Below are positions 1-64,000 of a DNA stretch of 64,000 bases, in pieces. Source of the stretch: a virus (lineage: Duplodnaviria; Caudoviricetes); IMG/VR virus record IMGVR_UViG_3300021255_002539, positions 64,001 to 128,000 of that record. One strand, written 5' to 3'. The notes below the pieces were generated by a model that did not search any database, was not told the origin of the DNA, and worked only from the letters and a program-made list of their open reading frames with translations. A program made the position numbers and the translations under genes. Each line of letters begins with the position of its first letter. The stretch's first letter is position 1.

Positions 1-1731
1 ACCCGCCAGTCCATTCAGGGCGTTCCCCAATGCAGAGAACAACCCACCAGAAGATCCTTGGTTCTACTACTGGGTGGATTGCTGACCACCTCCACCTACC
101 ATCCCACCGGTCAATGCGTTGAATGCGGACGAAGCAAGGTCTGCCGCCGCCCCAACCAATCCCTTTGCTGCCCCAGAGGCGACACCCAAGGCACCAGTGG
201 CAGCATCCGTCACCAGTCCAACCGCACCAGTAGCCAAGTCCACAGCACCACCAATCGCCTTGTCCATGAACGATGGCTCGGCGCCAGGGGCATTCTGCTC
301 GTTCGCTTGAAATCCCTCTGGTTGTGCAGACGCATTAGCAACCTCCGAACCAGTGTCCAAAACCTCGTTGTGTACATCAGCGACAGCAGCAACATCCCCA
401 GGAACCTCACCTTGCCCCATTCCAGCCTCCTGCTCTATCGTCTTGTCGTGGAGGTCGCCATTTGGGTCGTTGGTGTCGTTGGCTTGGGCGTCCTTGTTCT
501 CCCATGGCTCCTGTTGGTCGGGCGTCGTGTTCTACTCACCTTGGTCTGGGGGATTCCCCTCCTCGTTCACATCCATGTTTGAGGTTTGCGTTTCGCCATC
601 GCCATTCTGGTCAGCATATTCGTCTGGATTGTAGTTGGGATCGTCCTTGTTCTGCCATTCTGGTTCGTCCTCTCCTGGCATGTCACCCTCACCTTGCTGC
701 TGTGCGTCTTGCTCGTTCTGATACGCCTCGTCGCGCATCTCCTGCAACGCCTCTTGCATCTGCTCCATTTCCTCCTCTGTTGGACCAGTGTCGTCTTGGT
801 CTGGGTTCTCGTCTTGGTTGTCTTGGGAACCAGACGCCGATGGAGGCGTGGTGAACACGAACGACCTTCTGTTCCCCAGGTTGGCAGAGCCCGAACTGGA
901 CCCAGCAACATCCCCCATTATGTCCACCAGGCACATGTCGCAGGTCAAGGACAGACTCCTGAGCAAATTGCTGACGCCAGACCCATTCACCTCGAATGCG
1001 TTGTAGTTGGTTGGCTTCACCCCAATGTACTTGTAGGAATAGTACTGATACTCTGCGTCGTTTCTGGATTCCTGGGAACTGGGCATGTCCCTGTACCGCA
1101 TTCTGGGACGCTGAACCTCAAGGGTTGCCATTGGATAGGGGGTCGCCCACTCTGTGTATGCAGCATCTGGCTTGTACCACCATGGGGAGTTGATGTCCTT
1201 CATCCAGGGATAGAACAGGGAATCCAGAATGGAGAACTCGGTGTCGACCATCTGCAGGGTTATCTGTTGCTGACCATCAGACGCATATGGGGAGAACGAG
1301 CCAGCAGCCGTTTTTCCGAACAAAGTGTCAATCTACTCGCCATTCGCGGGCTTAATCTCTGGCAACTGCGCCTGCCGCACAAATGGAGTCAAGTCGATGC
1401 AATTGTATGGCAAGGATGTGTCGTCTGTTCCACTCTGGATTCCCCCCTCGCCCCACAGACTCCAGTTGGTGGCATGGAAATCTGGGGCAGTCTTGTCAAG
1501 CACCGGCCTCCACCCAAACTCCACATATGGACACTATATCAATGTGCCCTGGGCGTCGTGGAACCAGAGGAACACATAATACTCCGGGTCGGTGATGATG
1601 GTATAGTTTGGGACAGTTGGCTGATGAAACTTGTCGAGAAACCGTTCCAACCCTTGGTGTGCATCTCGACCCATCGGGTCCTGATAACCATTGGTCATCA
1701 TCTCCTTGCTGTTGAATATATTCTCCATCAC
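1..1731 (-). CDS. Tail-tube/baseplate tube-initiator-like protein with long acidic, Q/G/A-rich C-terminal extension (runs off window; TAG=Gln at 1534, 1333, 532, 67, 64)
   Basis: Track ORFs 1534-1731, 1333-1524, 532-1323 and 67-420 share one frame, separated only by TAG; the N-terminal part resembles gp19/gp48/gp54-type folds (VRQAQLPEI, ITLQMVDTEFS..FYPWM, YKYIGVKPT); GTAAATA motif at 1738-1744. Confidence 0.55.
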
Positions 1732-1838
1732 ATTTCGTATTTACCATTTGTGGAGCAAATGGAACAGACAAGCAAAAACCGACTTCAACTGGGAAGTCGG
1801 CCTTTGTCATTTGGATTACTTAATTTGTTGTTGGTCTC

Positions 1839-13424: not shown

Positions 13425-15185
13425 ATGCGAGGAGACCCAACATATACGCAATACGACATGTCCGAGAGGGGGGAGGAGAAGAAGTACCCAAATTGGAAGG
13501 ATGCTGCCCCAAATCTGCAGACATTCCTCACTGCCCTCAACCAATCTCAACCAATAATCCAATGCCAATACGAATTGGTGTGGAGCAGATGGCCGAGGAC
13601 AATCTTCTTCGCAAAGAACATCACGATTCCTGGCGTATCTGTGAACACGCTTGACATCTCCCATGCTGGATTCACCATCAAGATACCAACTCACGTCACA
13701 TACGAAACCACAGAGGTCTCGATAAACATAATCGCTGACAAGGAGGGCTTCCACTACTACGACCTCAGGAACATGGTTCTGCAGACTGGACATCCATTGG
13801 TTGCTGGCGATCCAAGGGCCACAATTGGAAACCCATACGGACTGTCACCTGACGAGGACACATTGGAGGTCAGATTGCGCAACAGACCCGAGGACGAGAC
13901 CCACCACCACTGGATTCTGCACAACTTCCACCCAACTGGGATAGGAGACCTTGAACTGACCCAAGATGGTGGTGGATTCGTGGAGTTCGAGTTGAAGGGG
14001 ACGATAACCCATGTCACATACGATTGTGGAAACAGCAACGGAGAAATGCCACAACAAGAGCAGCAACAGCAAGAAAGCCAACAGGAAGGTTCGAGCAACA
14101 ACCCAATCGTGCAACTGGCGTAGTCCCCAACACTTGGCGTGTATGTATACAACACTGAAACCCACGAGGGCAAGTGGGAGCGAACAGGGCAGCCCGTTGA
14201 TGTGTCTAGCGTGGTTCTGCCACCTGGAACATCCCAATATGGCGACAATCCAGATCTGAACTACGACGGTTCATCCACGCAAAAGTGGAATCCACAGGAT
14301 TGGGATGGCGACCCAAACACCCAATACATCGTCAAAAGCGAAACCCTTACTGCTGCGAAGAAGGATGTTCAGGTTGATGGCAAGACGATGACAATGGTGA
14401 AGATTCAGGGGAACTTGACTCCAGAACAAACAGAAATACTGAAACAGGGTGGAACACAGGCATTGATCAACCAACTTGAGATGGAGAACAAGGAACAAGC
14501 AAACATCGACCAATATGCCGAGGATTTGCAGGAAATCAGCGACCAATCCAGAAACAGCAACTAGTCTGAGCAACAACCCCCAGAAGAAGACGACCAAAAC
14601 ACATCTGGATTTAAGATATAGGCGACGAAAAGCGCAGATGGCACATACACGATTGAAAAGGCAACCATGTTCAACTCGTCGAAGGTGTTGACGCAAGACG
14701 ACATGGTTGTGCAAACGCAGATACTCACATCACTGAGAAACGACTACGAAAAGTCCAAGGGAGGGAAGAACACTGTGATGCAGGCGCATCTAAAACGGCA
14801 AGTCGAACTGCAGGAGAAGAAGATGAAAGTGATGCAACAGTGGATTGACGAGCGAAATGCAGAACAACCCCAGACCAGAGGTGGTTCCCTTCCTGTTGGA
14901 TAGATGTCCCAAAGCCAATTGGAGCAGCTGAAGTACCTTTTCGAGGCGGTTCAATACAACTACGACCTGCCAGACAACTTCATAGTCGTAGTCAATCCAC
15001 TAGAGGAAATTGAAATATACAACCAGAGATTGACCAAGATGAGCCTCCCAGGGAGATTTGGAATGTACAAGTCCACAAAGAAGGATGCTGAGGAAAAACT
15101 GGACATAGACCCAGAAGACCCACCCTTCAACCCAAATCCAAGAAAAGTGGATCCCAACCACAAGGTCAGGGATATATTCGGGTGA
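13425..15185 (+). CDS. 586-aa tail-tube-like (gp19/gp54) protein with Gln-rich C-terminal extension (TAG=Gln at 14121, 14562, 14619, 14901)
   Basis: Four same-frame track ORFs joined only by TAG; FAKNITIPGVSV, NFHPTGIGDLEL, FVEFEL motifs. Confidence 0.6.
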
Positions 15186-15304
15186 TTCAGATTCGGAATT
15201 TCGTATAATTGAGGCATAGGTAAGTGTAAAGGGTGGTATTTACCATAACTTCAAGTAAAAGGATACATGGTGATGCTCCCAACCAACAAAGGAAACAAAA
15301 CACC

Positions 15305-15961
15305 ATGCCAAGAAGAAAAACCGAATCACTGGAGGAATTCCAGAAGAAGAACCTAGAGAAGTCCAAGATAAGATAGAGGTAGAGGGCGGAGCAGGAGAAG
15401 ACCAACCCGAAGCCAAAGCGCAAGCCATTCGTCAACAACGCAGAACTTCTGGACGAATTGAAGAAGTGGCGGGACTCCAACGAGGACGAGACAAAGAGGG
15501 TTCCATCAGAAAGGTTGGGGAAGATGATGCAGGACATAGCCACGCACTACATGGGACACCCAGACTATGTTCGATACCCCAAGGAAATCAAGGAGGACAT
15601 CATTTCAATGTCCTACGAGAGGATATTCAAGACTGCGATATTCAAGTACAACTTCAACTTCACGAACCCATTCGCGTACTTCACTCAGGTTTGTTGGAGC
15701 TGTGCGATGACCTACCTCAAGAAGCACTACGACTTTTTGAACTTCAAGAGGAAGCTGGTGAAGGAGAATCTGGAGAAGGCGATGGACGAACTCCCATCCA
15801 TCAACATAGACAAGTCCTACATGACCTTCCTGAAGAACATGATTGGCGCAGATCAGATAACTGAGGCAGACGCCAAGTTCCTGAAACGGCAGAAGGACTC
15901 CATCATCCAGGAGATTCTGACAGAGAAAGCCAACAACGAAGACGACGACAACATCAACTGA
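15305..15961 (+). CDS. gp55: Late-transcription sigma factor (T4 gp55-like; TAG=Gln at 15374, 15380)
   Basis: PFVNNAELL...LGKMM..IATH...KEDIIS...FTNPFAYFTQVCW motifs; the ATG with AAGGA RBS at 15305 needs two TAG read-throughs. Confidence 0.8.
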
Positions 15962-22834: not shown

Positions 22835-22843
22835 CTATGCGCC

Positions 22844-22875
22844 TATTTACCATCTTTGGCGTCAAATGGTAAATA
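22844..22875. promoter_or_regulatory. Divergent pair of putative late promoters GTAAATA (representative of ~20 copies)
   Basis: Motif sits immediately upstream of late genes at 1738, 4565, 10731, 12490, 12516, 12563, 19904, 22844, 22869, 27815, 27870, 31895, 36260, 36285, 39891, 41144, 54285, 56614, 57793, 58803; resembles the T4 late promoter TATAAATA. Confidence 0.7.
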
Positions 22876-22882
22876 CCAACAT

Positions 22883-31846: not shown

Positions 31847-31934
31847 ATTATGGTATTCCTCTTTGTTCAATTATACCATTTCGCGCATATAATTGTAAAT
31901 AGACTATGACAATACCCAATAGAGGAAAGCAACT

Positions 31935-36231: not shown

Positions 36232-36325
36232 GGCTACATTGCTCGTTGTTGTGCTATTCTATTTACCATTTGTCAATAATTATTGTAAATAACCATGTAC
36301 GACCTAATATGGGGGAAAACAAACA

Positions 36326-39858: not shown

Positions 39859-39893
39859 TGGTAATTCCCCACTTGTCGTGTTGTCATTACTAT

Positions 39894-40391
39894 TTACACC
39901 TTTCTCCCAAAAAACTTCGCCAACCAATACAACACGCCAATCGGAATTGGAATCTTCAGCCACTTAAACCACCTATGACGAACCCACACTATCGTTCCGA
40001 AGGACACACACTTTCCCACCTAACGTGACGCACAGACAATTGCTCTATTGTTGTCCTGGATGAACTTCAACAACTCGGCCTGCTTTGGATATGGATTGAG
40101 CGTCACCAAGCCATCCTTCAACGACACAATCTTGAAGTACTTGCGGCAGAAATATAGAATGTCCTGCTTGCATTTCCTGATTTCCCTGGCTCGACGCTTG
40201 AATTCCTCTGGAGTCAGAATCTCCTTCTCGCCGGCCTTCTTGATTGAAGCAAGCTCCCCAGTTGGATTGCCCGACTTCTTCTGTTGCTGAACCAACTATG
40301 CAGACGCCAATTGAGGGCCTTGTGGCTTTTCCTACCCAAGATCCAGATTCTCGAACTTGTCGATTGTCGGCTTCTCTATTCCTAATCCCAT
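39894..40391 (-). CDS. terL: Large terminase N-terminal fragment (127 aa) fused to 38-aa split-intein N-fragment (39897-40010) (TAG=Gln at 40332, 40296, 40020)
   Basis: KCKQDILYFCRKYFKI..LNPYPKQ..CASR[TAG]VGK|CVSFGTIV...; ends at TAA 39894. Confidence 0.85.
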
Positions 40392-42502: not shown

Positions 42503-42610
42503 ATTTGATGAAAAACGAAGAAAAACGCCCGGAAATTGGAAGATTTGGATTGGAAGTTCAATTGGATAGACGAAAACCAATTTAGTTTTCCAATTTCCGG
42601 GCCATCAAAT
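42503..42610. repeat. Long intergenic inverted repeat (15-bp perfect arms 42527-42541/42588-42602; outer 8-bp arms 42503-42510/42603-42610)
   Basis: GCCCGGAAATTGGAA / TTCCAATTTCCGGGC and ATTTGATG / CATCAAAT. Confidence 0.75.
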
Positions 42611-48600: not shown

Positions 48601-51600
48601 TCCAAGCGTCTTCTGCCTCGCCTTGAATGTCCTGTAGATGCCCTTGACAATCTTCTTGGTGTATGTCTCCAGCTGGGTCCAGGATGTCATATCGTCACCC
48701 AGTTCCCTGTTCCTGTTCTTGAAGTACTTGATGTAGGCGTAGTGCCGAACCACATTCCAGAGGTTCCACACAATCTGCCTATTCTCCATCGAACCAAGTA
48801 TGTCCTTGTTCAAGTCCCCAGGCACGGCCTTTGCCACCATGTCTGTCTCACCATTGGAGTACTGTCCCATGAAGTACTTGTCGGCAATTGGGTCTTCGTG
48901 TTGGTTCGTTCCAAAGTCGTTGCTTGGGTGGTGTACCTTCCACTTCTCGTCAGTTCCAGCGTAGTTGGGATCGAACGCCCCCTTGTACACATTGCCAGAG
49001 TTGTCTGTCGTCAGAACGGCGTGTCCATTCGCGTCCTTCGCGAAGTCGACTCCCAGGGTATGGGCGACCGCATGCCACCTCTGCTCGTCCTTCACGATTG
49101 GCTTGTGTACCTCTTCCCCAGTGGCAGTAACAGTGGTCTCCTCGTCCTGCCTCTCGTGTGCGCAACTCCAGCACCAACCACCCTCTTGGTAGTTCAACTT
49201 CGCGCTGCTGGACAATCCATAGCAATCCACATCTGGACCGTTGTTCTTTACGCCCCTGTTGTCCCACCAGAACACATATGGCATTATGTCCTCAATCTCC
49301 ACCACCTGATCAATCTAGTCCATTGGCTCAACCATCGTGATGTAGAACCAAACGGAATCCTCGTCGAAATCGTCTATCGCATGTGCCTGACCCAGGTTGT
49401 ACTGGTACTTTGGCGAATTCACATAGGAGCCCGTCATGTCATAGTCGTCAACCCAATCCTGCAGGGGGAACCTGGGATTGTCTGGGAGGTTTTCGTATGC
49501 AGATCCATAGACGCCATTGTAGGTGTCTGGTTCGTGGTCCTGGTTGGTGTCCAACATCGTCAACTGCTTAAGTGTGTTGAGCGAAATCAAGTTGTTGTGC
49601 AATTTGGAGAGGATTCTGAGGTTGTTGTCCCCATGGTGATGGCGCGCCAGGAACTCGCAGGAATCCACCATGTCGCCGAAGTTGGGGTCAGCGCGCCTGT
49701 CCATGAAGGACTGCTCGAATATGACGCCATTTATGTGGTTGGAGGTGGTTGGGAATGCGCCAGAAGTCAAATCCAACATGTCACTGTACACTTCGCCATT
49801 GCGCCCCTTGTTGAAGAACGGCTGCATGAAGTATGTCCAATCCCTGTTGTTGTACAGCCAGCACCATGTATTGGCCGCCTTGTCCTCCCTCGTTGTTGGG
49901 TCGATGTATATCCTCTGCAGGTCAGAATCCATCTGCAGGAAGTTGCTGCCACACACATGGTTGTGGTGGTCGTAGGAGGATGGAACATACAGCGCGCCCT
50001 CGTTGTACTCCATGTCAACCATCGTCTTGGATGGGATTGTACACCAACCGAAAACGCCATAGTCGTTCTTCTCGTCGCAATCGCACTTCAAGGTCTGACC
50101 CTGACAATCGTCGAATATGTCCCTGACCTCTGGCATCGCAACTGGCCTGTACTTCTTCACGGTGGATGTGAACGTCTGAACCTGCTTGTTCGTCCTCGCA
50201 ATTGGATTCAACTTGTGCTTGATGAAGTCGGTTATGTCTGTTGGGGATTGCACAGAGGTGTTCTCGTACAGGCAAATTGGGCTGACGACATACATCATTT
50301 GCTCGTCTGCCAACTCTGGATGCAGTCTTTGACTTTGCTCTGCCCCAGAATCCCTTGTCTTGTTGACCCCCAACCACTCCTTCTTGTAGTCGTAGAAGTA
50401 GTGGAAGTCGTTGTACTGAACGCCAGTAATCTCCACGTTCACTGGGCGTATTCTCCCCTGGGCATATTCGCCAGAAGTACAACATATCAACCTGTCTCCC
50501 TGAACTTGGTTTGCGGCATGGAAGTTGGAGAACTTCAACTCGATGGTTGGCTCAAACGATATCCACTTCTTGTCGTCCTGGTTGTGCCAAACCTGATTGT
50601 CGTCTGGTCTCTCGCACACAATCTTGTCCTCGGATCCAGCTTGTTCACAAACCACCTTGTCCCCCTCTCCAACGCACATTATGTCAGAGCCAGTTGTGTA
50701 GCCATACCACCAATTGGATGGCTCGGGGACATCAATCTTGAGGAAGTACTCCTGGTGCGCGATGTCCAGGTTGATCTTGAGCAAGGCATTCAACAAAACC
50801 TCAACGTCGCCTATGTCCATTATCGACAACTGACGGAAGTCGTTTTCCTGCTACTTGTATGTTGGTTCCCCATACATGTCGACCAGCATCTTCACATATG
50901 GGCAATTCCACAGTTCCTCGAAATGCTTACCACTTGCAGTTGGGTCCAATCCACACAACCCACAATGAAAACTGGATTCGGTTGAGTCAACAACGAGGTT
51001 GGAGCAATCAGAAAACACATCCTAGTCAATCTACGACTGTTCAACCTCCACGGGAATTTCGTTGTCTTCTTGATGCTCAATGGATCCAAGGTCCATCTCC
51101 ACAACCTCGTCGTAGACAGCGACAAACACCATGTCAGAAAGCACCGTGAAGGATGAGGACAAGTTGCCAGACTCCAGCAGCCAATATCTGAACTTGAACT
51201 GGTGTCCATCATCCGTAGTGTAGTGGTTCTGAATGTGGAAGTTTGGAATTCTGCAGTTCTGAACGACATCAAACCTCTGTTCTGTCCTGGTCCCACCCAC
51301 ATCCATGTACTTGAACACGACATTGAGCATGCTGTTCTTGATTTCAACGACAACAGCCTCGTTCACAACGCCGTATTCTGGCATTTCTCCATTCTCGCAA
51401 ACAATTGGTTCTGATGTATCACCACACACAATTGGCTCGGCGTCTTCTCCACATACCACAAACTCGTTGGAATCGACGCCACCTATGTAGCTGCCATTTG
51501 GAATCGTCCAACCACCAAACTTGAATTCAGTATCCACCAGTTGTGGATCGTGGTCTGGAACGACCATTTGGTTCTTCTTGTTGTCTATCAGAACCTCGCA

Positions 51601-54276
51601 ATAGAGCTTTTCCCCAACAGTGAACTTGACCTTGTATACAGAATCCTCCCACATCGCCCGAAACGTCAAAACTGGTGGTTTGTCCATGTTGTACACGATT
51701 TGGGGAGTGAAGTTCTTTCCAGGGTACAATGTATATGTCGTGTTCCCAAGCGAGTATTTCCAACTGCTGAACCTCCCCGTCTTGACCTTCGGGGATTCAT
51801 ACCCACTTGTTGGTTGCCATGAACTGTCGTCGTGGTATGTGTATAGCGACTCTTCCTTGGCATATTCGTACCCACATGCCGGCACTGGAGTCGACTTGCC
51901 AGACTATACAACGATTGGGTCCATGTGCCCAGATACAGACGAATCGTCGCTTTGGAACTGCACTATGTAGTCGGACACCCACATGGCGTGTATTGTCATC
52001 GTGGTCTTGCCATATTCGAAGTTCTTGGGAGTCAGAACCGACTTTGTCGTGTAATCGACTCTTGAACCACCACTGGTCTTGCTGAACCCAGACAGAACAT
52101 AATTCACTGTCTTCCCATTTGCCGTGAATGTTGGCTTTTCCACGACAACCAATTGGGACAAGTCGAATTCGCCTCCAGCATCCTCGAATTGCACATGCAG
52201 GATGTTGCTTCCTGGCATCCATTCGGCAGAACCATCGGGGAACTGTATGTTGCCATGCGCCCCACCCTGCCAGGTCATGAATGCAGTCGTTGAGCAGTCT
52301 ATGAACAAGTCCCAGGTTCCAGTATAGTTGTCCTAATCTGAGGTAGCCCTGGCCAACATCGTCTTCGCAATTGGCGTATCCAGGAACTCCCTTGGGCTGG
52401 ACGCCTGCCTATCGAGCAATGGGCACAAATCCCACTTCTTGTCCAGCCAGTCCATCGTCTGCTTGGAGAGAACCTGGTTGAACTCCCTCAGCACTGCGCG
52501 TTCGTTTTTGTCCAGGACATCACTGTTGTTCTCGTATGTCTTTAGCTTCGTGAGGTATCTGAGGTAGTCCTTCCCCACTTCGTCTTCTGTATCGTAGTAT
52601 ATCCCCAAGTCGTGGTCAGACTTCTTGAGTGAGTCAGTCGTCAAGTACTTGTAGCCAGAATCCAGGTTGATGTGCCTTTGGAAGGTCTCAGTTGGCGTTG
52701 ACTTGAACTGAAGGTATTTGTATATCCTGGAGAACACGCGCTCGATGACGATGGCGCACTGGGATTCAGAATAGTACTGCGCATTTGCCTCGGTGAATTC
52801 CTCAACCCCATTGGTGTTTGGGTTGAATATGTTGAGGATATGTTCGTTCTGCACAACCGAGAAAGCGTCAACCAGTGCATCGAAGCCAGAAGCGACCATC
52901 TTTGGCAGGACAGACCCCTTCATGTCGGAAACGAAGTTTGGCTTGGTGTACTTCCCATCCTCTGGTACTGCAATCTCCATCAACTCGCAATACTCCCTGC
53001 CAGACATCACCTCGTATGCCCGTCCCAGGTGCAAATTGGTGTACCTCGTGAACCTGGAGTACCCATCGAAGCTGGAGTATACCTTGCCCTTCTGCTCGAA
53101 CCAATCGAAGTCAGAAGCATATGCTGTCACCTGTCCCCTGTAGCCCTCCAATCCACGCACCAACCCGCAAATCTTCTTGAGGACACCCCTGGGAGTCGTG
53201 TTCTCCCTTCTGTCGTTTCTGATTGCGCTTGATTTCAACTTGTACTTCTGCCACAAATCGTCGTCCCATACAACCTGTTCACCCTCCTTCTTGTGGGGGT
53301 TCATGTTCATGTACCTGTCGTCGAATGGATATTGGGCGTCAATCTGCCTGTAGAGCAATTGATACCAAATGTCCAACGCCAAGATGCCCTCCCATTGCGT
53401 GTGTGGATGCTTGAACCCATATACCTCGTGGCACATTCTGATGTTGGAGAGCTTTGCGAACAAGGATGCCAAGTGTTCGCAGAAGGTGTAGATGTAGGCC
53501 CTCTCGTCCTGCTCCAACACAATGTTCCTGAACTTGTCCTTCGCGTCCTCCAATTCCTTCTTGAGGTTGCCCAGTTCGTATAGCTTTGATGTCAACTTGT
53601 GCCTGTTCTTGTCGACTTGGTTTTCCTTGACATCGTATACCCCAGTGTTGTAGTCGGTTAGGAACTTGTCTGAGTATATGCCAGTCATTGGTATGTTCTA
53701 ATCGCCAATTCTGTATTCACCCACCTGCGAATAGTCCACAAATGGCGTGTATGTGAAGGAATCCACGAAGAAGCCACCCATGGACTCGTTGAACTTCTGC
53801 CCGAACTCGTTGTTGAACTCTGCGAATTGACCACTGACGTTCTTCAAACCACACCAGGTGCTGCCCTCTGCGACAGAAAACCCCTTGAACCCACCCCGAT
53901 TGTCCGAGTAGAACGTCAACCCATCCTTGAACAAGTTGAAGTCAGAAGAGAACATGAGGCCAGAGAAGTCCTACAGGACAATCCTCTCAATGTGGTCGAA
54001 TGGCGTATTCAGCCTGTCCATTATGTTGGGCCAGTACTCGGGGTTGTTGTTCACCAGGATTTCAGATTTGGTGTTATCGGGCTATAGTGCCGACCTGCCA
54101 TCCTCAACCGACGGTGCAGTATATGTTGGAGGCAGGTTCTGAAGCATCTCCTTGCGCACCTCGTAGTCAGTACGCTCCTTCTTCATCACATCGCGAATCA
54201 GCTTCTGAACCTGATTAGTTACCCGTTCTTTCAATTTGTCAATGTAGTCCATGATCTTTCGTCTATCACTATCCAA
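42610..54276 (-). CDS. ~3,888-aa giant virion/adhesin protein: InlB-B/Listeria-Bacteroides-like repeats, vWA-like domain, split FGE-sulfatase (C-type lectin fold) domain; 20 TAG=Gln codons
   Basis: Fifteen track ORFs share one frame; I read every gap and found only TAG, never TAA/TGA, until TGA 42610; motifs DLFFLFDASAS, YDMLGNVWE, FDLPTEAQWEYCCR; GTAAATA at 54285-54291. Confidence 0.8.
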
Positions 54277-54366: not shown

Positions 54367-56580
54367 TCAAATCTCAACTGCAGTGTGCTTTACTCTGTCC
54401 TCGGTCTCCCTTTGCTTTCCATAGTTGAATGCTGTCTTGTAGTTTCCGGTCAGATAGCCCGTCACACGTCGAAGACGTTGAATGTTAGAAGAGCCACACT
54501 GAGGGCACTTCTCCCCAATCTCGTCCATATAGCCACAATCGTTGCATATGTCGTTCGGCACATTCACTGCGAAGTACGGAATGTCCTTGTCCATCGCGTA
54601 GTTTACCAGTTCCTCGATTGCCTGCACATTGTTCTTCGCAGAACCATCGAGTTCAACATATGTAATACAGCCTGCCGAGCTGTATCCAGTCAACTGGCTT
54701 TCAAGGTCAATCTTCTCGAATGGGGTCATCTTCTCCCACACAGGAATGTGCATGGAGTTCGTGAAGTAGTCGTGGTCAGAGACGTGCTCAATCACCCCAT
54801 ACTTCGCCTTGAACTTCTTCATCGCAGTATAGCACAGATTCTCTGCAGGGGTGTAGTACACGCCGAAGTTCAACTTGTATTCCTGCTTGAACTCAGCGCA
54901 CCTGTCCTTGAACAATTGCTCAATGCGCTTTGCCAATTCCATGCCCTTCTTCGTGGCGTGGTTGCATCCAATGAGGATGTGAAGGGTTTCTGCAAGTCCA
55001 AGCTGCCCAATTGCCAAAGTGCCATGCTTCAACGCGGACTTGATGCCCTCCTCAGGCTTGTAGCCATACATCGTGCCATTCTCGTACATGAACTTGGCAG
55101 ATGCTGCTGGCTGAGAGCTTATCCAATCGAACCTTTCAAGCAAGGAATCCTTGGCTTCGTGAATCTTCTTGTCAAGCAACTTCATGAACTCCTCAACCAA
55201 GTCGGTTCCAGCCTTCTCTGCCTTCTTCTTCGCTTGCATAGCAAGAACGGGCATTATTAAAGTCACGGGACATATGTTGCCCCTTCCATCCTTGAGATGC
55301 TTAAGCTTTGGATCATCGGCATTGATATCCCACGAAGAAAACGTTCTGCAGCCCATCGTGCTTGGATATGTGCAGGGATTGTCCTTGTCATAACCAATGT
55401 CATTGGTCCAATCACAGTTACAAAAATTCGGATACAGCCTCAATGCGGTGGATTTGCAAGCCAGCTTGAACAAGTCGTAGTTGGGGTCTCCCTTCTTTCG
55501 GTTCACGCCCTTCATGCACTGAAAGATGCCACATGGGAAGATGCTCGTCTTGTGGAACTTGCCAATGCCCTTGATGGAACCCTCAAGCAACGCCTTTGTC
55601 ACCATCCTGCCCTCTGGGAGTGTGCAGGTACCATAGTTGATCGAAGTGAACGGCAATTGGTTTCCACTGCGCGACTGAAGTGTATTGAGGTTGTGATACA
55701 TTCCCTCCACTGCCTGGTTAAGCTCCTCAATTGTCTTGTCCATTGCGTACTTGTATGCATCGGAATCCTTTGCATAGAAATCATCGTCTATTGACAGCTC
55801 ACGAATTTCCTTCTTGCTCTTGACAACCGATTCTGGACATTTATCAATGTAAAAGGCACCGTCCCAATAATGCTTGAAGAAGCTGAGACGAACATATGGA
55901 ACCATAGTCCAATCAAGATGCGTCGCTGCAACTCCTCCAAACTGTTGTAGACTTTGGAGTTGGAATATCACGGCGACCAACTGAAACGCGGTGTTGAGTG
56001 AACCAGCCGGTCTTACATCACCCTGCCTCGTGTTGAATCCATCGGCAAGCAACTTGTCGAATGGAATCGACAAACAGTTGTGGGATCCTACTGCATAGGA
56101 ATCCAGGTCGTGTATGTAGATTTCGTTGTTGTTGTGGTTGTGGCGGGTCTTCTTGCCCACCAGATGCTCAAGCGCATATCCCTTCGTCACGAAGCTCGCA
56201 GTCTCGCCCATTCTTCCACCAAAGGAGTACTCGTCCACATTGGCATTCTGATTCTGAACATTGCTTGCCGTCAACTTCTCTGTGAGGAACTTGGTGTTTC
56301 TGACGCGCTCCTTCTCGTATCTATATGTGATGTACTTCTTCGCCACCTCGTAGCCAGAAGCCTCCATCAGCTTCTTCTCTATGACATCCTCCAATATGTC
56401 GATGTCTATGGGTTCCTCCAGTGTCTCGCAGAACGCCACAACCGAATCTGTTATCCTCTTCAGTTGCTTGGATGTCAGCTTCTCGTCTGACTTCACATTG
56501 TCGTTTGCCTTGATTATCGAGTTCAATATCTTCTTTGGCTCCAGGTCCTCCACCTTGCCATCTCTTTTAATAACTGTCAT
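54367..56580 (-). CDS. nrdD: Anaerobic ribonucleoside-triphosphate reductase with ATP cone
   Basis: VIKRDG ATP cone, IYIHDLD, TMGCRT, YYTPAENLC, CNDC...CPQCG, LRRVTGYL. Confidence 0.95.
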   Translation of the reverse strand: MTVIKRDGKVEDLEPKKILNSIIKANDNVKSDEKLTSKQLKRITDSVVAFCETLEEPIDIDILEDVIEKKLMEASGYEVAKKYITYRYEKERVRNTKFLTEKLTASNVQNQNANVDEYSFGGRMGETASFVTKGYALEHLVGKKTRHNHNNNEIYIHDLDSYAVGSHNCLSIPFDKLLADGFNTRQGDVRPAGSLNTAFQLVAVIFQLQSLQQFGGVAATHLDWTMVPYVRLSFFKHYWDGAFYIDKCPESVVKSKKEIRELSIDDDFYAKDSDAYKYAMDKTIEELNQAVEGMYHNLNTLQSRSGNQLPFTSINYGTCTLPEGRMVTKALLEGSIKGIGKFHKTSIFPCGIFQCMKGVNRKKGDPNYDLFKLACKSTALRLYPNFCNCDWTNDIGYDKDNPCTYPSTMGCRTFSSWDINADDPKLKHLKDGRGNICPVTLIMPVLAMQAKKKAEKAGTDLVEEFMKLLDKKIHEAKDSLLERFDWISSQPAASAKFMYENGTMYGYKPEEGIKSALKHGTLAIGQLGLAETLHILIGCNHATKKGMELAKRIEQLFKDRCAEFKQEYKLNFGVYYTPAENLCYTAMKKFKAKYGVIEHVSDHDYFTNSMHIPVWEKMTPFEKIDLESQLTGYSSAGCITYVELDGSAKNNVQAIEELVNYAMDKDIPYFAVNVPNDICNDCGYMDEIGEKCPQCGSSNIQRLRRVTGYLTGNYKTAFNYGKQRETEDRVKHTAVEI

Positions 56581-56704
56581 GTCTTGTGTTCCTCTTCTTG
56601 AATTGACAAGTAGTATTTACATTATCCAATTATACCAACAAAAGGCAAATTCGGACACCCATTCAAGGATGCCCGAATTCCTGATTGCTTGTGTCGGTTG
56701 CCCA

Positions 56705-57757
56705 TCAAAGATGCCTGAACACGAAACCATCTTCCTCGAAGTAGTCGGTCATGAGCAAGTCCCGACCGAACGCCTCGTAGTCGAAGTAGTTCCTCGCAGT
56801 GTCTGCTCCAAGCTGGTCAACGCCACCAATGCTGTCGATGTAGTCCCTGGCAACCTGATCGTCAGACTCGTACTCGCCCATGTCGTATCCATCGTTGTCG
56901 TAGTAGTGGTCGGGATCCTCTGGGTTGCCCTCGGAGTCCTCGTTGTCCTCTTCTCCCATGTGGAAGTCGAACATCAAGTCCCTTCCGAAGGAGTCGTAGT
57001 CGAAGTACATGTCCAAGTTGTCAGAGCCGATTCCATCCCAACCGAGGTCGTCTATGATGTTGTACGCAAAGTCAGATGCTGAATCGAATTGCCCTTGATA
57101 CGCCTCGTGGAAGTCGTCGATGTCGTCGTCGTCAGTGTAGTTTACATACGCCTCGTAAGCAGCCTTCTCGGTATCGTCCATCAAGTAGTAGTCGGTTATC
57201 TTGTTGAACTCCTCCTCGGTTGGCAATCCACCCTCGTGATACCACTTCTCTGGGAAGTTCTCGTAGTCCTGAACCATGAACTCTGGATCCTTCTCGTCCT
57301 TGTGGAGTTCACGGCAGGCATCCACGAAATCCTCGTAGTTGCTGTAGTCAGTGAGGTCAATCCACTTGCCATCAATCGAACCATCGTTGTACTTGGCGTA
57401 GGTTCCGACATAGATTCTGGGGTGGTCTGAGCCGCCACCGTCTTCAGACTCGTTTTGCCTCTTGCCATCTGGCGTCCTGCCAATCTCCCATGTCGCTTGG
57501 TCAAGGGACTTGAAGTTGGGATTTGACTTGTCAGTTTCAACTTCATTCACAATGCCACCTTTTTGGTTCAAGTCGCCATAGAACTGGCCCAACCTATCGC
57601 GCCACTTCTTTGCAACAAGGAACTTCGCGTCGCTCGTCTTCGAGTTAATTCCTGCGGCGACCAACGAATACAGTTCGTCCAGTTCCTCCTTGCCATTGAT
57701 GTCCAACGAAAACTTGGGTTCGTTGTCGGCTTCCTTTACAATCTTCTTGAATTTCAT
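56705..57757 (-). CDS. ardA: ArdA anti-restriction (DNA-mimic) protein with ~110-aa N-terminal extension and duplicated C-terminal domain
   Basis: PRIYVGTYAKYNDGSIDGKWIDL, DPEFMVQDYENFP, YFDYDSFGRDL and YFDYEAFGRDL; highly acidic; GTAAATA at 57793-57799. Confidence 0.85.
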   Translation of the reverse strand: MKFKKIVKEADNEPKFSLDINGKEELDELYSLVAAGINSKTSDAKFLVAKKWRDRLGQFYGDLNQKGGIVNEVETDKSNPNFKSLDQATWEIGRTPDGKRQNESEDGGGSDHPRIYVGTYAKYNDGSIDGKWIDLTDYSNYEDFVDACRELHKDEKDPEFMVQDYENFPEKWYHEGGLPTEEEFNKITDYYLMDDTEKAAYEAYVNYTDDDDIDDFHEAYQGQFDSASDFAYNIIDDLGWDGIGSDNLDMYFDYDSFGRDLMFDFHMGEEDNEDSEGNPEDPDHYYDNDGYDMGEYESDDQVARDYIDSIGGVDQLGADTARNYFDYEAFGRDLLMTDYFEEDGFVFRHL

Positions 57758-57808
57758 GTTTTGTAGTCCTCTTAAAACCATTGGTTCAAGAGTATTTACA
57801 AAAACACA

Positions 57809-58258
57809 TCACTTTTGCTGGTTCTGATCCTGCTCCATGTTGGAGAGCATCGTGTGGACGAACTGCCCATAGTCCAGATACCGTATCTTGGTTCCGGCCT
57901 TCACCTGGTCGAACAGATTCAAGTCCCTCACATTGTTCAACTTCATCAGGAACCAGGCAAGTCTGGTCGATCCATACACCTTCCAGGAAACAGAGGGCCA
58001 GTGCATGTCAGTTGGGCAGACATACCATTTGCACACCTCGTCTGGGATGTCAACCAAATAGAATGTGGAGTTGAGGTTGTATTGCCATCGGCCTTCCTCG
58101 TCTATGAAGAGGGAGAACATCTTGTCGAGGTCGAAGAAGTCTGGCTGGGTGTCGGAGACTGAATGAACATAGTCCCGAATGTCGTCTGCGAAGACGCCAT
58201 CCATCGTATAGGGCTTTCCAACGACCCTTGTGTTCCTCAATCCACGTTTCTCTGCCAT
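57809..58258 (-). CDS. Baseplate wedge subunit (T4 gp53-like, LysM-related)
   Basis: HWPSVSWKVYGSTRLAWFLMKLNNV...VKAGTKIRY motif. Confidence 0.65.
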   Translation of the reverse strand: MAEKRGLRNTRVVGKPYTMDGVFADDIRDYVHSVSDTQPDFFDLDKMFSLFIDEEGRWQYNLNSTFYLVDIPDEVCKWYVCPTDMHWPSVSWKVYGSTRLAWFLMKLNNVRDLNLFDQVKAGTKIRYLDYGQFVHTMLSNMEQDQNQQK

Positions 58259-58773
58259 CAGTTGCCGAACTCCATTTCAACGACCTTTCCAGTCTTGCGC
58301 CACTCGTCGACCTTGATGATTCTCTGGTTGGTGCTTCCCCTGAATGGCGTGGACAAGTCACGCTTCTCCAATACAAATGGTCCATCCACAAGCACATCGA
58401 TGTAGTCCAGAATTGGGGACATCTCTGTGTCTTTCGCAATTTCCTCAAATGTGTATCCTGACCAGCACCACACAGATTTGTCAGGAAACCGCTCCTTGAC
58501 TTCCTTGCACAGTGCTATCATGACCTTGCGATTGTCAGAGCATTTGGACAGTGGCTCCCCACCCATCAGTGACAGACCCGAGCAATGAGGGTCTTCAAGT
58601 TCCTTGAATATCTTTTCCTTTACCTCGTCTGTGAATGACTGCCCAAAGTTGGGGTCTTGAGCCTCGGGGTTGAAGCACCCTGGACATTTCCTCATGCAGC
58701 CCGTGCACCAGAGTGTGCATCTAAATCCAATTCCATTTGCGATGTCAGCCTTTCTCAATGCAGAATAGTTCAT
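58258..58773 (-). CDS. nrdG: Anaerobic RNR activating radical-SAM enzyme
   Basis: DIANGIGFRCTLWCTGCMRKCPGCFN, GGEPL, DVLVDGPF, FRGSTNQR. Confidence 0.95.
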   Translation of the reverse strand: MNYSALRKADIANGIGFRCTLWCTGCMRKCPGCFNPEAQDPNFGQSFTDEVKEKIFKELEDPHCSGLSLMGGEPLSKCSDNRKVMIALCKEVKERFPDKSVWCWSGYTFEEIAKDTEMSPILDYIDVLVDGPFVLEKRDLSTPFRGSTNQRIIKVDEWRKTGKVVEMEFGN

Positions 58774-58948: not shown

Positions 58949-60616
58949 TCAAAAGTCAACATTCACCTTTACTTCACCGTTTTCAAAAGCCTTGTTGTTA
59001 TCAATGGGTTTTTCGTCCTCTGAGCCAGCAGATACTGAAGTCGTTGGTAGGTAGCGGTAGTAGACCATCAATTGAAGGGCAACCAGGCATGTATCCATAT
59101 AGGGTCTTGTCGAGTGGGCATCCTTGTTCTCGTAGTAGCCCTGCTTGTGGGGCTTGCCATTGGAATCCAGAACTGGATCGGGGACATCTATGATTGACTG
59201 TGGATATAGCTTCTTCATCGCGGTGTTCCACTTCACCCAGATTTCCTCGTCCTGCTTGAGCGCACCCGGCTTCATGCCAGCCTGGTACTTGCACTGGGTG
59301 GCGTAGTAGCAGTAGTACTGAGGGCTTGAACCTGGCTTGTTCTTCGCAGAAATCTGGTCTGGGTTGAACTCGGGCTTCCAGTCCTCCATGACATCCAATG
59401 CATTTCTGACCTCTGGCTCCCCACCCCTGCCAAGAAACTGCATTGCCAGTGCGCCAACTCCTGCGAGACCCGTGTTTCCACCATTGTTGTTGGGTGTTGG
59501 CGTGTAGGTGAATCCAGAGGATTTCGAGTAACTGCGCCTCTTGAGACAATTGATGGCCTTGTTGATTGCCTGGTCCAGTCCCTCTGGATGGAGGCCAGCC
59601 ATCTTGCCTGCCTTGAGTGCCTGAATCGCCCAACCAGCATACGACAAGTCGTCTCTCGTGGAATTCTTGTTCAACTTGTAGTCCCAACCACCAGTAGAGG
59701 ATTGGTTCTCCACGATGCGGTAGAGGCAAGTCATCGCAGCATCCTTGCAGTTCGGGTTTCTCGTCATGCCATATGCCTCGCAAAGCGCGTATGTCGCCAA
59801 CAGGAAACTGTACTCGTTGCCATCGGTTCCGTTGAAGTGTGGGACATTGGAAGCATCCACATTCAATGCGCCGATGATGTAGTCCAAAGCAGACATGACC
59901 ACAGGACCGAACTCCCTGCCATATTTGGATTCTGAACCTGGGTACTCTCCATGCGCAAGGTATGTCAAGATGGCCAGTGCAGTGTTGGCAACCTTGTTCG
60001 CGTTCCCCCAGCTGCCATCTGTGTTCTGATGCGCCTTGAGCCACCATAGGACCTTCATCACGGTCGCCTCTGTGCTGGGATCTCCATGGCCAGGTACGCC
60101 ACCCTTCGTCATGCCACCAATCATCCCAGGGTTTCTGCCACCAGTAACACACCTCAACCTCACTGGGGAGTTTATCATCGAGACGGAATCAGAATCTGCT
60201 GGACGAATGGATGTCTGGGTAGAAGGTTGGGAAATTGGTGCAGGGTCAACAATGTCTACATCCACTGTTGGGGCATCCACCTCGAATTCGGGCGTCTCGT
60301 CGCTCGTTGGTTGTTCTGCATCTGGTGGAATTGGGGGTTCCTCAAATTCCTGCTCTGTCTTATCCTCGACATCTGGGATATCAACGATGGGGAACTCAAA
60401 CACATCCTGCCTGGCCACGGCAGTGACAACGCACAACACAACGGCAACCAAAGATGGTATCAATACAGCAACGAGGGGTGCAGACATCCTCTGAAGCTCA
60501 AGCCTCGCCAACTTGTACTCAGGCGTCCATTTGGGCTTCCTCAGACCCACAATCATGTCAACCACCCTCCTGAAAAGGGATTTGTCCTTGTATTTGTCTT
60601 CTGTGTTGTTTTCCAT
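58949..60616 (-). CDS. Membrane-anchored prenyltransferase/squalene-oxidase-repeat protein
   Basis: N-terminal TM segment, Pro/acidic linker, VLWWLKAHQNTDGSWG, ENQSSTGGWDY, QALKAGKMAG repeats. Confidence 0.75.
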   Translation of the reverse strand: MENNTEDKYKDKSLFRRVVDMIVGLRKPKWTPEYKLARLELQRMSAPLVAVLIPSLVAVVLCVVTAVARQDVFEFPIVDIPDVEDKTEQEFEEPPIPPDAEQPTSDETPEFEVDAPTVDVDIVDPAPISQPSTQTSIRPADSDSVSMINSPVRLRCVTGGRNPGMIGGMTKGGVPGHGDPSTEATVMKVLWWLKAHQNTDGSWGNANKVANTALAILTYLAHGEYPGSESKYGREFGPVVMSALDYIIGALNVDASNVPHFNGTDGNEYSFLLATYALCEAYGMTRNPNCKDAAMTCLYRIVENQSSTGGWDYKLNKNSTRDDLSYAGWAIQALKAGKMAGLHPEGLDQAINKAINCLKRRSYSKSSGFTYTPTPNNNGGNTGLAGVGALAMQFLGRGGEPEVRNALDVMEDWKPEFNPDQISAKNKPGSSPQYYCYYATQCKYQAGMKPGALKQDEEIWVKWNTAMKKLYPQSIIDVPDPVLDSNGKPHKQGYYENKDAHSTRPYMDTCLVALQLMVYYRYLPTTSVSAGSEDEKPIDNNKAFENGEVKVNVDF

Positions 60617-60650
60617 ATGCATTCTCCTCGTATAATTTATATTACCACAA

Positions 60651-61793
60651 ATGGACAAGGAATTCCACAACTTTTTTCGACTTTCCACGAGTCAATAGGA
60701 TATTGAGGCAAATCTCCAGAGAATTCGGGAGATCAACCCCAAACTCTACCTTGAATTGCGCCTAAACCAGGGAAGGATTGGCAACATTCAAACCACCAAG
60801 GCGATTTCGGACATTCTTGAAACGAACCCCAATGTGGAGTTCAGACTGGATTGTCCAAATGTAACCGAGGTCGAGGTTGCCGACCACTTGAATGGAGGTC
60901 TGAATGGCTACGACAACTCCCCCTTGTTCGCCCTCAACGCAATCTACCAACAGACCCAATATGTTGATGTGGCTTTGGTGCAGTGCTTCTTTGGACAAGA
61001 CAAACTTCAGGAGCAGGCAATAGAACTGGCGTTGCAGTTCATGTCCATGTCAAACCCAAGACCCAGGGAATGGGTGTTCGTGGAGGCGCAAAGAAGCGAA
61101 ATGGACGCGAAGTTCAAGTGGGTTGTTGGGATTGGATGCAAGTATGTGTTCGTGAGGATTGAGAACGACAAGCAAGACTACTTCATCAAGGAACAGCTGT
61201 GGAACATCGGAGCGAAGAACACTAAGTCAGACAACCTTGTGTTCGTGGATGGGGATGTGGCATATTGCCAAATGGACTGGCTCAAGCATGTAAAAGGGAC
61301 ATTCGACGAGGGTGTTGAGTTGTTCCAGCCACATGCCTGGTCGTGGAGGGCAAGTGAACTAGATGGGACAAAGGAATTTGGCGCAAATAGTCTAAACCTA
61401 ATTGAGTCATTTGGTCACGCGAGAAAACTAAACAAGTCTTCCTACAACGCATTCAACGGACACACAGGATACGACATTGCGATTTCAAGGCGACACTACA
61501 AGAAACTTGGTGGCTTCTATTCAACTGCTGGAACTGGAGGAGACTTCTTCAACTGGTGTCTACTTGCCCAAGGAAACTACCTCAGAGGAAATCAATTTGA
61601 GCAACGACTTGCAGAGATACTATCTGGGTGCAACATACCAGTTGTTCAAATAGGGAGTTCAGACATGATATGCTTCCACAACTACCACGGAAGCGCAAAT
61701 GACAGAGCTAGGAAGTACGGCAGCGATCTCAACGGCAAAATCCTCGTGGCAAACAACTTTGGCATGAGCAAAATAGCGGAGGTTGGTGAATGA
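60651..61793 (+). CDS. GT-A fold glycosyltransferase-like protein (TAG=Gln at 60696)
   Basis: KEQLWNIGA...LVFVDGDV (DxD), GGF..GGD motif; extends to ATG 60651 through one TAG. Confidence 0.65.
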
Positions 61794-62680: not shown

Positions 62681-63384
62681 AAAAAGTGATATTGTTCATA
62701 TGGTTCGGAGACGAAAAACCACCATACATACAGTGGACATTGGAGAACTTCAGAAGGATGAACCCAGGTTGGGAGATTAGATACATAGAATATTCAACTC
62801 AACAAATACTCGACTACAAAAATTCAAACGATGAAGCATTGTTCAATGTAATGTCCAAAAACAAAATGTTTGGACATTTATGTTATATGTCAAACGAATA
62901 TCGCTACGAATATCTCAATTTGAAAAAAGACGAGTTCATCATATATTGTGATTTAGATTGCTTTCCAATAGCTCCATTCGACAACTTCATAATGCCAAAT
63001 GACGACAACCTTCCAAAATGGGCGACAGAAATCTTTTGTCCAAACCAGCACATTTGGTCCAATGCTCTTGGAACATGTGGTTTTGTCATTGAAGGACATT
63101 ACTTGTTCAAGAAAGACATATGGTGTCTATGTAATAACAAGGCACTTGCGTTTAGACAATTCCTGCAAATATGCAAACATTCCACATTAGACGAAAATCT
63201 CATATTGTATAATGGTTTTTTGCTAAACAAATCCTGTTTGCCGATGTACGAGCAACGACTCAACAACTTCCACAACATGAATTTGACCCTTGGGGACAAT
63301 TTCTGCCTTCCGCAATTCACACCAATCGAACACTACTATTCTCGAGAACGCAACAAGTTGAACATAGGCACAATAACAAAATGA
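62677..63384 (+). CDS. Glycosyltransferase family 32-like (DxD) protein
   Basis: FIWFGDEKPP..NPGWEI..YRYEYL..IYCDLDCF. Confidence 0.7.
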   Translation: MKKVILFIWFGDEKPPYIQWTLENFRRMNPGWEIRYIEYSTQQILDYKNSNDEALFNVMSKNKMFGHLCYMSNEYRYEYLNLKKDEFIIYCDLDCFPIAPFDNFIMPNDDNLPKWATEIFCPNQHIWSNALGTCGFVIEGHYLFKKDIWCLCNNKALAFRQFLQICKHSTLDENLILYNGFLLNKSCLPMYEQRLNNFHNMNLTLGDNFCLPQFTPIEHYYSRERNKLNIGTITK

Positions 63385-64000
63385 CTATAACAGACACATT
63401 TTGGGGACGCATTGGAAACACATGCTTGTAGATTTACAAGCTGTTTCTATTTGCACATCTTCGTGAAATTCCATATGATTTCATCAAGATACCACAAAGC
63501 AAGTACAATCCATTGTTCGAGAACATAGGAACACACTTCGTTCAAGACAATGAATTGAACAAGATAGAATACACAATTGAGCTTGAGGACTTCATTGACC
63601 TATAGTCTGTTGAATTTTCCGAACATGACAACATAAGGTTCAAGAAGTGGAATTGGCTATATCCCAACACTATAGACGAACTTCGCTTGTTCAACTAGAT
63701 ATTCGATGCAAAGACATTGCACGACGATATAATTGAGAAGTATGGGCATGTATTTGACAAGCCAACCATTGGACTCACTGTGAGACGAGGAGACTTCATT
63801 GAATTGAAGATACCAATCCTAAGTGAATGTCAATTGAGAAAATTGGTAAACAAGATCATTTCTGATAGACATGGATTCGTAAAAATTGTCTTGAGCAGCG
63901 ACAACATTCCATGGTGCAAAGACGCTCTTCAGGACTGCAAAGATGTGTTCTTCGTGGATGATGCGCCAGAGAACTAGATAATGCTTCTCTCATTTTGCGA
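63381..64000 (+). CDS. Alpha-1,2-fucosyltransferase (GT11)-like protein, partial (TAG=Gln at 63429, 63603, 63696, 63975)
   Basis: GRIGNTCL[TAG] matches GxLGNxMFQ; TVRRGDF matches HVRRGDY; SSDNIPWCK matches SDDIxWCK. Confidence 0.75.

Follow-up and report, generated by a model that had tools for sequence, protein, structure and literature searches.

Does TAG still mean stop in the phage from which this stretch of DNA comes, or has it become a codon, and if so, for which amino acid and in which genes? The stretch, which we call the window, is the 64,000 nucleotides that span bases 64001-128000 of the IMG/VR virus record IMGVR_UViG_3300021255_002539, a genome of 414,060 bp and 48% G+C that carries direct terminal repeats, was judged complete and probably comes from the rumen. 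A sequence-only reading of the window had proposed that TAG specifies glutamine (Gln, Q) in the late genes of a T4-like lineage, possibly infecting bacteria of the PVC (Planctomycetes-Verrucomicrobia-Chlamydiae) group. The analysis described here makes it very likely that this is a complete T4-like jumbo phage in which TAG acts as a Gln codon; decoding would proceed via a phage tRNA with the anticodon CUA, tRNA(CUA), and late expression would depend on it.

Using the terminase as a query, we retrieved 13 related contigs from IMG/VR. Two of them are complete and were fetched whole, namely G1 (433,895 bp; large terminase subunit, TerL, 88% identical) and G2 (418,068 bp; TerL 82% identical); both were assembled independently of the present genome, G0. 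At the DNA level, blastn with a piece of about 8 kb (7.9 kb) gave no match among 50,697 GenBank phage records. The T4-like affiliation suggested from the window is supported by the gene content of the genome, which contains a core virion set: a gp17-type TerL with the Pfam domain PF03237 (Terminase_6N), a portal and a sheath matching T4 gp20 and gp18 in the PDB (E = 5e-24 in both cases) and a major head protein (phrog_138, E = 1e-70). To these are added T4-type genes for replication, recombination and transcription, i.e., a gp55-like sigma factor, UvsX, SbcC/D (gp46/47), Dda, DNA polymerase and the clamp loader, as well as topoisomerase II and an RnlA-like protein.

Measures based on open reading frames (ORFs) alone did not answer the question. 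With stop-to-stop ORF coverage and greedy ORF density, a genome in which TAG is sense is not separable from one in which TGA is sense, as removing TGA from the set of stops raises coverage equally. The gain in coding density expected under code 15 was obtained (about 4% by a rough greedy estimate), but this measure likewise does not distinguish TAG from TGA. Therefore, we defined frames by conservation: the stop-to-stop frames of G0, G1 and G2 were compared all against all by tblastn with TAG treated as X, and the best-scoring frame was kept at each place.

This procedure delimited 50 conserved genes in the window, 19 of which carry a total of 66 in-frame TAGs (20 of these in a single gene of 3,888 amino acids [aa]), and 52% of the conserved codons of the window lie behind a first TAG. 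The in-frame TAGs noticed in the raw sequence are thus confirmed. Genome-wide, 307 in-frame TAGs are found in 109 of the 364 conserved genes, which corresponds to 2.8 per 1000 codons and to 7% of the Gln codons. As a fair control, we counted stops on the subject side of the alignments, where nothing constrains which stops may appear. Well-aligned columns of the relatives contain 131-156 TAG, 13-17 TGA and 3-8 TAA triplets, so that in-frame TAG is about 10 times commoner than in-frame TGA or TAA, although the genome has roughly three TGA trinucleotides for each TAG. The excess of in-frame TAG is above chance. Codon-usage coding potential gave 113 TAG versus 22 TGA and 24 TAA, a signal that is weak in a genome of 48% G+C. 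The 13-17 in-frame TGA triplets per genome pair stand opposite W, R, C or G; alignments running on past gene ends or real truncations may account for them.

The individual positions highlighted in the sequence-only reading are all correctly placed: A-S-R-[TAG]-V-G-K at 40020-40022 on the minus strand, E-S-[TAG]-A-M-F-W at 39028 and G-N-T-C-L-[TAG]-I-Y at 63429. They fall in the first, second and fourth of the following genes, the third being the other terminase piece:

39894..40391, minus strand: N-terminal piece of the terminase, with three TAGs including that of the Walker-A motif at 40020-40022 (ASR[TAG]VGK), after which come an intein-like stretch (CVSFGT...) and a TAA
38683..39963, minus strand: ORF with a Zn finger and a DUF559 (Vsr-like) endonuclease domain (Pfam, E = 5e-8), with five in-frame TAGs
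36711..38765, minus strand: C-terminal piece of the terminase, with the C-part of the intein (...SHN|TTIYT) and then the T4-type Terminase_6N domain; six TAGs, 80% identity to the relatives
63381..63998, plus strand: GT11-like glycosyltransferase (Pfam PF01531, E = 2.7e-7), cut by the window end, with TAG at codons 17, 75, 106 and 199

The claim that TAG occupies conserved Gln positions in all three cases was only partly sustained. It stands for the TerL Walker-A motif (SRQxGK), where the TAG at 40020 corresponds to CAG or CAA in the related sequences L004, L005, L011 and L012 (the last two being distant TerL relatives, 31-38% identical) and to TAG in L001, L002, L003 and L006. The GT11 column is mixed, and the endonuclease TAG is not demonstrably a conserved Gln, as it lies six residues upstream of the DUF559 match. 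Similarly, a read-through at 62672 had been proposed to create the canonical ATGA overlap also seen at 61790 and 63381. A TAG, one further codon and a TGA inside the ATGA overlap at 62677-62680 are indeed present, but that TAG could equally be a stop.

The terminase is peculiar in other respects. The large terminase (36711-40391, minus strand) is interrupted directly after the GK of the Walker-A motif; the rest of the Hint domain precedes Terminase_6N in a new frame, and the endonuclease ORF is placed between the two terminase pieces in yet another frame. The interruption may be a split intein, an intron or a frameshift. Directly upstream of the N-terminal piece, a TAG-free ORF of 239 aa (40395-41114, minus strand) also matches a terminase-large-subunit PHROG (phrog_5989, E = 1e-16).

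The amino acid assigned to TAG was deduced from the residues with which it aligns. In the conserved columns, the partners of G0 TAGs are Q (45), TAG (22), E (18), K (12), Y (8) and S (7), and in the reciprocal comparison TAG pairs with Q 57 times in G1 and 50 times in G2. Q is the top partner throughout, with 38-50% of the non-TAG partners. Using an empirical substitution table built from the same three-genome alignments, Gln was the best amino-acid hypothesis by more than 130 log-likelihood (lnL) units in each of the three genomes. The signal is not merely a neighbor effect of T-to-C changes, since CAA, which is two mutations away from TAG, is also a common partner (13-16 per genome). The enrichment of Gln that had been anticipated in homologous TAG columns is therefore present, and these alignments quantitatively support TAG as a Gln codon, i.e., the behavior of NCBI code 15. 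Pyrrolysine, suggested by the label "Pyl" that ARAGORN gives to CUA tRNAs, was ruled out, as TAG aligns with Gln.

There is no sign that TAG is used as a terminator. True TAG stops would pile up shortly before the next TAA or TGA, and we found 22 TAGs in the last 30 codons of genes versus about 30 expected; the terminal stops of the conserved genes are TGA (250, ca. 69%) and TAA (113, ca. 31%). A double role of TAG as a stop in early genes was likewise discarded, as there is no C-terminal excess and only isolated cases occur, such as the gp46-like gene.

TAG is not spread evenly among the genes. Its distribution is over-dispersed: 255 genes are TAG-free where 194 would be expected, and 2000 simulations gave at most 216. 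It also follows gene function, since TAG was found in 2 of 20 early or DNA-metabolism genes, whereas 10 of the 13 genes for packaging, tail and lysis carry it (p = 1.6e-4). In many packaging, tail, lysis and giant virion-type genes, and in the gp55-like late sigma factor, its density is about 3-4 per 1000 codons. Outside the window, the TAG-free genes include DNA polymerase, UvsX, gp47, ligase, both topoisomerase II subunits, clamp loader, DnaB, a methyltransferase, the RnlA-like protein and GroEL, and those bearing TAG include the portal (four), the sheath (three and one), a gp15-like gene (three), two hub proteins and the endolysin. In the window, TAG is carried by the terminase pieces and the endonuclease, by the tube-like and giant genes, by the gene for the gp55-like sigma factor and by several conserved genes without a known function.

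Promoter motifs in the 80 nucleotides upstream of the gene starts follow the same division. TAG-free genes are preceded by GTATAAT(A/T)(T/A), and many TAG-bearing genes by (A)TGGTAAATA(C/G). The early-type box TATAATAT was found upstream of 36 of 255 TAG-free genes and of none of the 109 genes with TAG, while boxes of the ATGGTAAATA type, which recall the T4 late TATAAATA, are over-represented ahead of the latter. TAG density is 0.45 per 1000 codons behind the early-type box versus 3.79 behind the late-type box (Fisher p = 7.6e-7). This test is circular in part, since it was the split between TAG-bearing and TAG-free genes that yielded the motifs. The resemblance of the motifs to sigma-70 and T4 late promoters is knowledge independent of that split. 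Both function and promoter class thus support the confinement of TAG to late genes suspected from the window, with several late genes lacking it.

One TAG-bearing gene of the window could have a special place in such a program:

15233..15961, plus strand: gp55-like late sigma factor (phrog_234, E = 5e-17), with N-terminal TAGs at about 15374 and 15380

Its ATG at 15305 is preceded, some 100 nucleotides upstream, by an early-type GTATAATTG box. The two codons are TAG/TAG in G0, TAG/Q in G1 and Q/TAG in G2, and G1 has an extra TAG where G0 and G2 have Q in the motif FTQ(V/I)CW. TAGs in this gene would fit a cascade in which the suppressor is needed before late transcription.

If TAG is read as Gln, something has to read it. 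As noted from the sequence alone, the window contains no tRNA; the candidate suppressor lies 170 kb downstream. The genome has 28 tRNAs and a transfer-messenger RNA (tmRNA) in a single array at 362-371 kb, none of the tRNAs with the anticodon CUA. The tmRNA (368037-368369) has the tag GNDYRMAA, and an ARAGORN "tRNA-???" at 367853 was rejected as a suppressor because it has a CAU-type loop. In both relatives, ARAGORN detected a tRNA(CUA) outside the tRNA array, at 410487-410576 in G1 and at 268611-268687 in G2 (minus strand in both). The G1 tRNA is 90 nucleotides long, and its extra-arm sequence UUCUGAA resembles a Gln (CUG) anticodon loop. A search of the full G0 genome for a CUA tRNA, as the earlier reading had recommended, was thus negative with ARAGORN and Rfam, but the site syntenic to those of the relatives (297902-297980, minus strand; L014:303-381:-) holds a non-canonical cloverleaf with this anticodon. 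It has a 7-bp acceptor stem with U1:A72 and G2:C71, G73, an encoded CCA, the anticodon loop CU-CUA-AC and a terminator. Its T loop is the 8-nucleotide GUGGCAAA, the last pair of its T stem is C:G instead of G:C, and 3:70 is A:U. Directly downstream of it there is a gene for a Pth2-type peptidyl-tRNA hydrolase (PF01981, E = 5e-9; 297258-297848, minus strand; L070:9258-9848).

The three loci share more than their position. The same giant gene precedes all of them, and every locus shows a GTATAATTGAA box together with a leader that ends in a TTTCAA-type spacer; G0 and G2 have leader sequence in common. The three tRNA bodies themselves cannot be aligned with one another, and the candidate used as a DNA query gave no match in the relatives. 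Exact-pattern scans of IMG/VR found only one further copy, and a scan with the C terminus of the upstream giant gene recovered only G1. That further copy, in a fourth phage (IMGVR_UViG_3300021399_000102; L078, ca. 829-907, minus strand), is the same odd tRNA; its anticodon stem and T stem show compensatory changes, and so do the D and T loops relative to each other. The latter go from D-loop UGCC with T-loop GGCA in G0 to UACC with GGUG in the fourth phage, so that the four possible inter-loop pairs are kept. This homolog has C33.

In the rules of recognition by glutaminyl-tRNA synthetase (GlnRS), exemplified by the Escherichia coli supE-type tRNA-Gln(CUA), a weak 1:72 pair, G2:C71, G73, G10 and U35 are identity elements. 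The candidate shares U1:A72, G2:C71, G73, G10 and C34-U35-A36 with it, and its acceptor end and D stem (GUGU/GCAC, G10) resemble those of phage tRNA-Gln genes. It differs from supE-type tRNAs in the A:U pair at 3:70, the D loop without GG, the 8-nucleotide T loop and in being missed by tRNA models. No match to PF03462 (PCRF), PF00472 (RF-1) or PF00749 (class-Ic/Glx synthetase) was found in G0, G1 or G2, so that release factor (RF) and GlnRS genes were found neither in the window, as already observed, nor in the full genome. GlnRS (TIGR00440, ca. 680 bits) is encoded by four of five metagenome-assembled genomes (MAGs) of candidate hosts; hence, direct glutaminylation of the CUA tRNA by the host enzyme is plausible.

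The host assignment comes from a gene in the early region of the window:

58949..60688, minus strand: host-like protein of 579 aa, TAG-free, with no Pfam or PHROG match and with Kiritimatiellae homologs

Over residues ~30-579, this protein is 63-69% identical to the products of 19 loci in rumen and gut Kiritimatiellae/'Lentisphaerae' MAGs, most of which have two paralogs. The MAG loci have 60% G+C (versus 48% in the phage) and use TGA for most stops. It seems likely from these similarities that the gene is host derived, and a host within the Kiritimatiellae is probable, which agrees with the PVC host suspected earlier by way of gene sharing only. The class III ribonucleotide reductase of the phage (NrdD/NrdG) fits an anaerobic host. 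A full-text search of the literature retrieved no paper on recoded phages of Kiritimatiellae.

Taken together, the following course of infection can be proposed. The tRNA(CUA) at 297902-297980 would be transcribed from its sigma-70-like, early-type promoter (GTATAATTGAA), charged by the host GlnRS and, once charged, would outcompete the host RF1 at TAG. Early genes, being TAG-free, could be translated in the naive cell. The TAG-bearing late genes, including the late sigma factor, would give full-length protein only once the suppressor had accumulated, so that late expression would depend on the code switch.

Several observations weigh against this account. Distant homologs are uninformative as to the meaning of the codon, with L in T4 gp20 and G in gp18 opposite TAG, at variable positions, in the PDB alignments, and the GT11 column is mixed among 24 distant homologs (E 7, Q 5, S 3), Q being found in the classical GNQMFQ forms. 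As for the confinement to late genes, the major capsid protein (MCP), the gp6-like wedge and the adaptor are late genes without TAG, a few early-classed genes carry one and the promoter-class test has the circularity mentioned above. By our estimate, the late-gene TAG rate makes it statistically unremarkable that gp55 carries TAG in all three genomes, and the timing of expression is drawn from the analogy with T4. Regarding the tRNA, the candidate has neither the D-loop GG nor the T-loop TTC, it escapes both ARAGORN and the tRNA model of Rfam, the latter even at E <= 10, and shuffled genomes contain its bare arm pattern by chance about 0.7 times each. The arm pattern therefore proves nothing alone, and the case for the tRNA is built on synteny and covariation together with the encoded CCA, the promoter and the terminator.

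Part of this would be explained if TAG meant Gln but was absent from early genes through passive constraint instead of a timing switch: early genes would not tolerate TAG as long as the tRNA is missing, and with a suppressor present TAG would drift in and out of fast-evolving late genes by transitions between CAG and TAG. The turnover of TAG sites is fast, only 22 of 143 aligned TAGs being common to a relative; genes with TAG are less conserved (often 33-45% identical) than those without (often 70-88%); the most conserved late genes (MCP, wedge) have none; and the gp55 TAGs are unremarkable at the late-gene rate. Against such drift, highly conserved late genes do carry TAG (TerL 80%, portal 84%, gp15-like 76%), N-terminal TAGs are kept in the late sigma factor of all three genomes and the suppressor stands behind an early-type promoter. 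We consider passive constraint possible, although on balance unlikely; it departs from the late code switch favored here only in whether the dependency serves regulation. It is a good deal less probable that the 297.9-kb cloverleaf is not a working suppressor and that TAG is read instead by a host tRNA, a co-infecting phage or an undetected RNA of the tRNA array. The rejection by standard tRNA finders, the odd D and T loops and the chance frequency of the bare stem pattern would agree with that, as would the recoded jumbo phages without a detectable suppressor tRNA reported in a 2026 survey (PMC13037316). However, a brute-force search for CUA cloverleaves gave this one candidate in 414 kb, exactly at the site of the ARAGORN-detected tRNA(CUA) of the relatives and with the same promoter and leader, and it has the encoded CCA, the terminator and the compensatory changes in the fourth phage.

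We regard as very improbable a reading of TAG as another amino acid or a mixture, for instance via the tRNA(CUA) of G1, which with its 90 nucleotides and long extra arm recalls class II tRNAs. TAG does align with E, K and Y too, but these are single-base neighbors (GAG, AAG, TAY), and when Gln is replaced in these genomes, it is usually by E and K as well. The lnL margin in favor of Gln holds in all three genomes, G1 included, and both the frequency of CAA as a partner and the acceptor end and D stem of the candidate, which are like those of phage tRNA-Gln genes, point the same way. Finally, the interrupted frames could be pseudogenes, assembly errors or long frames by chance with ordinary stops, as the equal rise in naive ORF coverage upon removing TGA or TAG would allow. 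This has a negligible probability: only TAG interrupts frames conserved in three independently assembled complete genomes, essential genes (TerL, portal, sheath) are hit and TAG exchanges specifically with Gln codons. The alignment partners, the lnL test and the subject-side stop counts already refute the pseudogene or chance-frame reading.

TAG-to-Gln recoding of late genes is in itself well established. In code-15 gut phages (Lak, crAss-like and other clades, among them the gemstone clades of Borges et al.) it is concentrated in late genes, and in Lak, Jade, Sapphire and Agate phages it affects structural and lysis genes, in several modules across the large genome (bioRxiv 10.1101/2021.08.26.457843). 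Lak megaphages were also described by Devoto et al. (PMC6784885), and proteomic proof of TAG-to-Gln was provided by Peters et al. (PMC9523058). The phages studied here resemble these in reading TAG as Gln, in having a tRNA(CUA), which in G0 is a candidate, in the presumed standard code of the host and in the concentration of recoding in structural and lysis genes, distributed over several modules. Unlike them, the present lineage is T4-like and of 414-434 kb, a size found in none of the eight recoded clades (Lak ca. 560 kb, the others 210 kb or less [bioRxiv 10.1101/2021.08.26.457843]); TAG density is low (2.8 per 1000 codons), there is no RF gene and the likely host belongs to the Kiritimatiellae, not to Prevotella or Firmicutes. 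In contrast to Lak, DNA-replication genes are essentially free of TAG.

A survey of code-15 gut and rumen jumbo phages (JPGD) reported a T4-type Portal_GP20 split by TAG and a tRNA(CUA) in ca. 60% of the genomes, calling recoding only if coding density rises by at least 10% (Anim Microbiome 2026, PMC13037316). With its gain of about 4%, roughly estimated, the present genome could be missed by a threshold of this type, and density-threshold screens may miss lightly recoded genomes in general. With T4 itself, the phage shares the gp55-like sigma factor, gp17-type TerL, gp20, gp18, UvsX, gp46/47, Dda, RnlA and topoisomerase II. The two also have in common early boxes of the TATAAT type and an upstream motif of late type with TAAATA at its end. 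The differences are that T4 uses the standard code, whereas the sigma factor and many late genes of the present phage need suppression of TAG, and that the present genome is 2.4 times larger.

Since the phenomenon is well established, the general significance of this case is modest. What is less ordinary is the combination of a T4-like 414-kb lineage, light recoding, a late sigma factor bearing TAG, a non-canonical suppressor at a syntenic locus and a probable PVC host. TAG-to-Gln recoding is thereby extended to a T4-like jumbo lineage with such a probable host. It also provides a tidy case for the idea that recoding times late expression, with the promoter classes, the TAG-bearing late sigma and the early-promoter suppressor all readable from the sequence. 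We would go further only tentatively, and hold it doubtful, in proposing a T4-type cascade gated by a code change, in which an early-promoter, non-canonical tRNA(CUA) with swapped D-loop/T-loop contacts, overlooked by tRNA finders, would have to build up before translation of the gp55-like late sigma factor, and with it of the virion genes, became possible; this would be the first Kiritimatiellae-linked jumbo-phage lineage. There is a practical side too. The standard code truncates or fragments about half of the conserved coding sequence of the window; the proteins of this lineage that are mis-annotated as a result include the terminase, the portal and the sheath, together with the giant virion proteins and the late sigma factor. 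Such fragments are already in public protein sets: the 86-aa protein P0002 is 99% identical to residues 113-198 of the GT11-like protein, precisely the piece between two TAGs, and hence is a standard-code (code-11) miscall of this or a near-identical genome. Otherwise, the GT11 fragment has no relative in the PDB and a word-indexed homolog search found nothing, while an exhaustive HMMER search gave 72 matches, in which the TAG columns are variable.

The remaining TAG-bearing genes considered in the window are these:

42610..54276, minus strand: giant gene of 3,888 aa with 20 TAGs, open only with TAG read through and with a late-type promoter motif upstream
13425..15185, plus strand: tail-tube-like gene (phrog_45) with four TAGs, all inside the conserved alignment
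1..1731, minus strand: 5'-proximal 577 codons of a conserved gene of 746 aa with seven TAGs, five of them in the window
34750..36276, minus strand: conserved gene of 508 aa with four TAGs and a late-type promoter motif upstream
22616..25225, plus strand: conserved gene of 869 aa with three TAGs
29918-31870, minus strand: gp46/SbcC-like gene, whose sole TAG (29945) is nine codons from the end

Over its full length, the giant gene can be aligned with both relatives (39% identity), and it has an FGE-sulfatase-like domain near residues 2150-2230, detected with both Pfam and PHROG. The 3' end and the stop of the gene at 1..1731 lie upstream of the first base of the window. For the gene at 34750..36276, the relatives have CAG or CAA at 35204 and 35347.

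TAG-free genes of the window, besides the host-like gene and an AAA ATPase gene, are the following:

54367..58773, minus strand: early block with NrdD, an ArdA-like protein, a 149-aa ORF and the NrdG activase
26520-27782, minus strand: Dda-like helicase
27903-29843, plus strand: ORF of 646 aa

Elsewhere in the genome (392704-394491, minus strand; L075:4704-6491), a Ro60-like protein with a TROVE domain (PF05731) carries three TAGs and is 82% conserved among the relatives.

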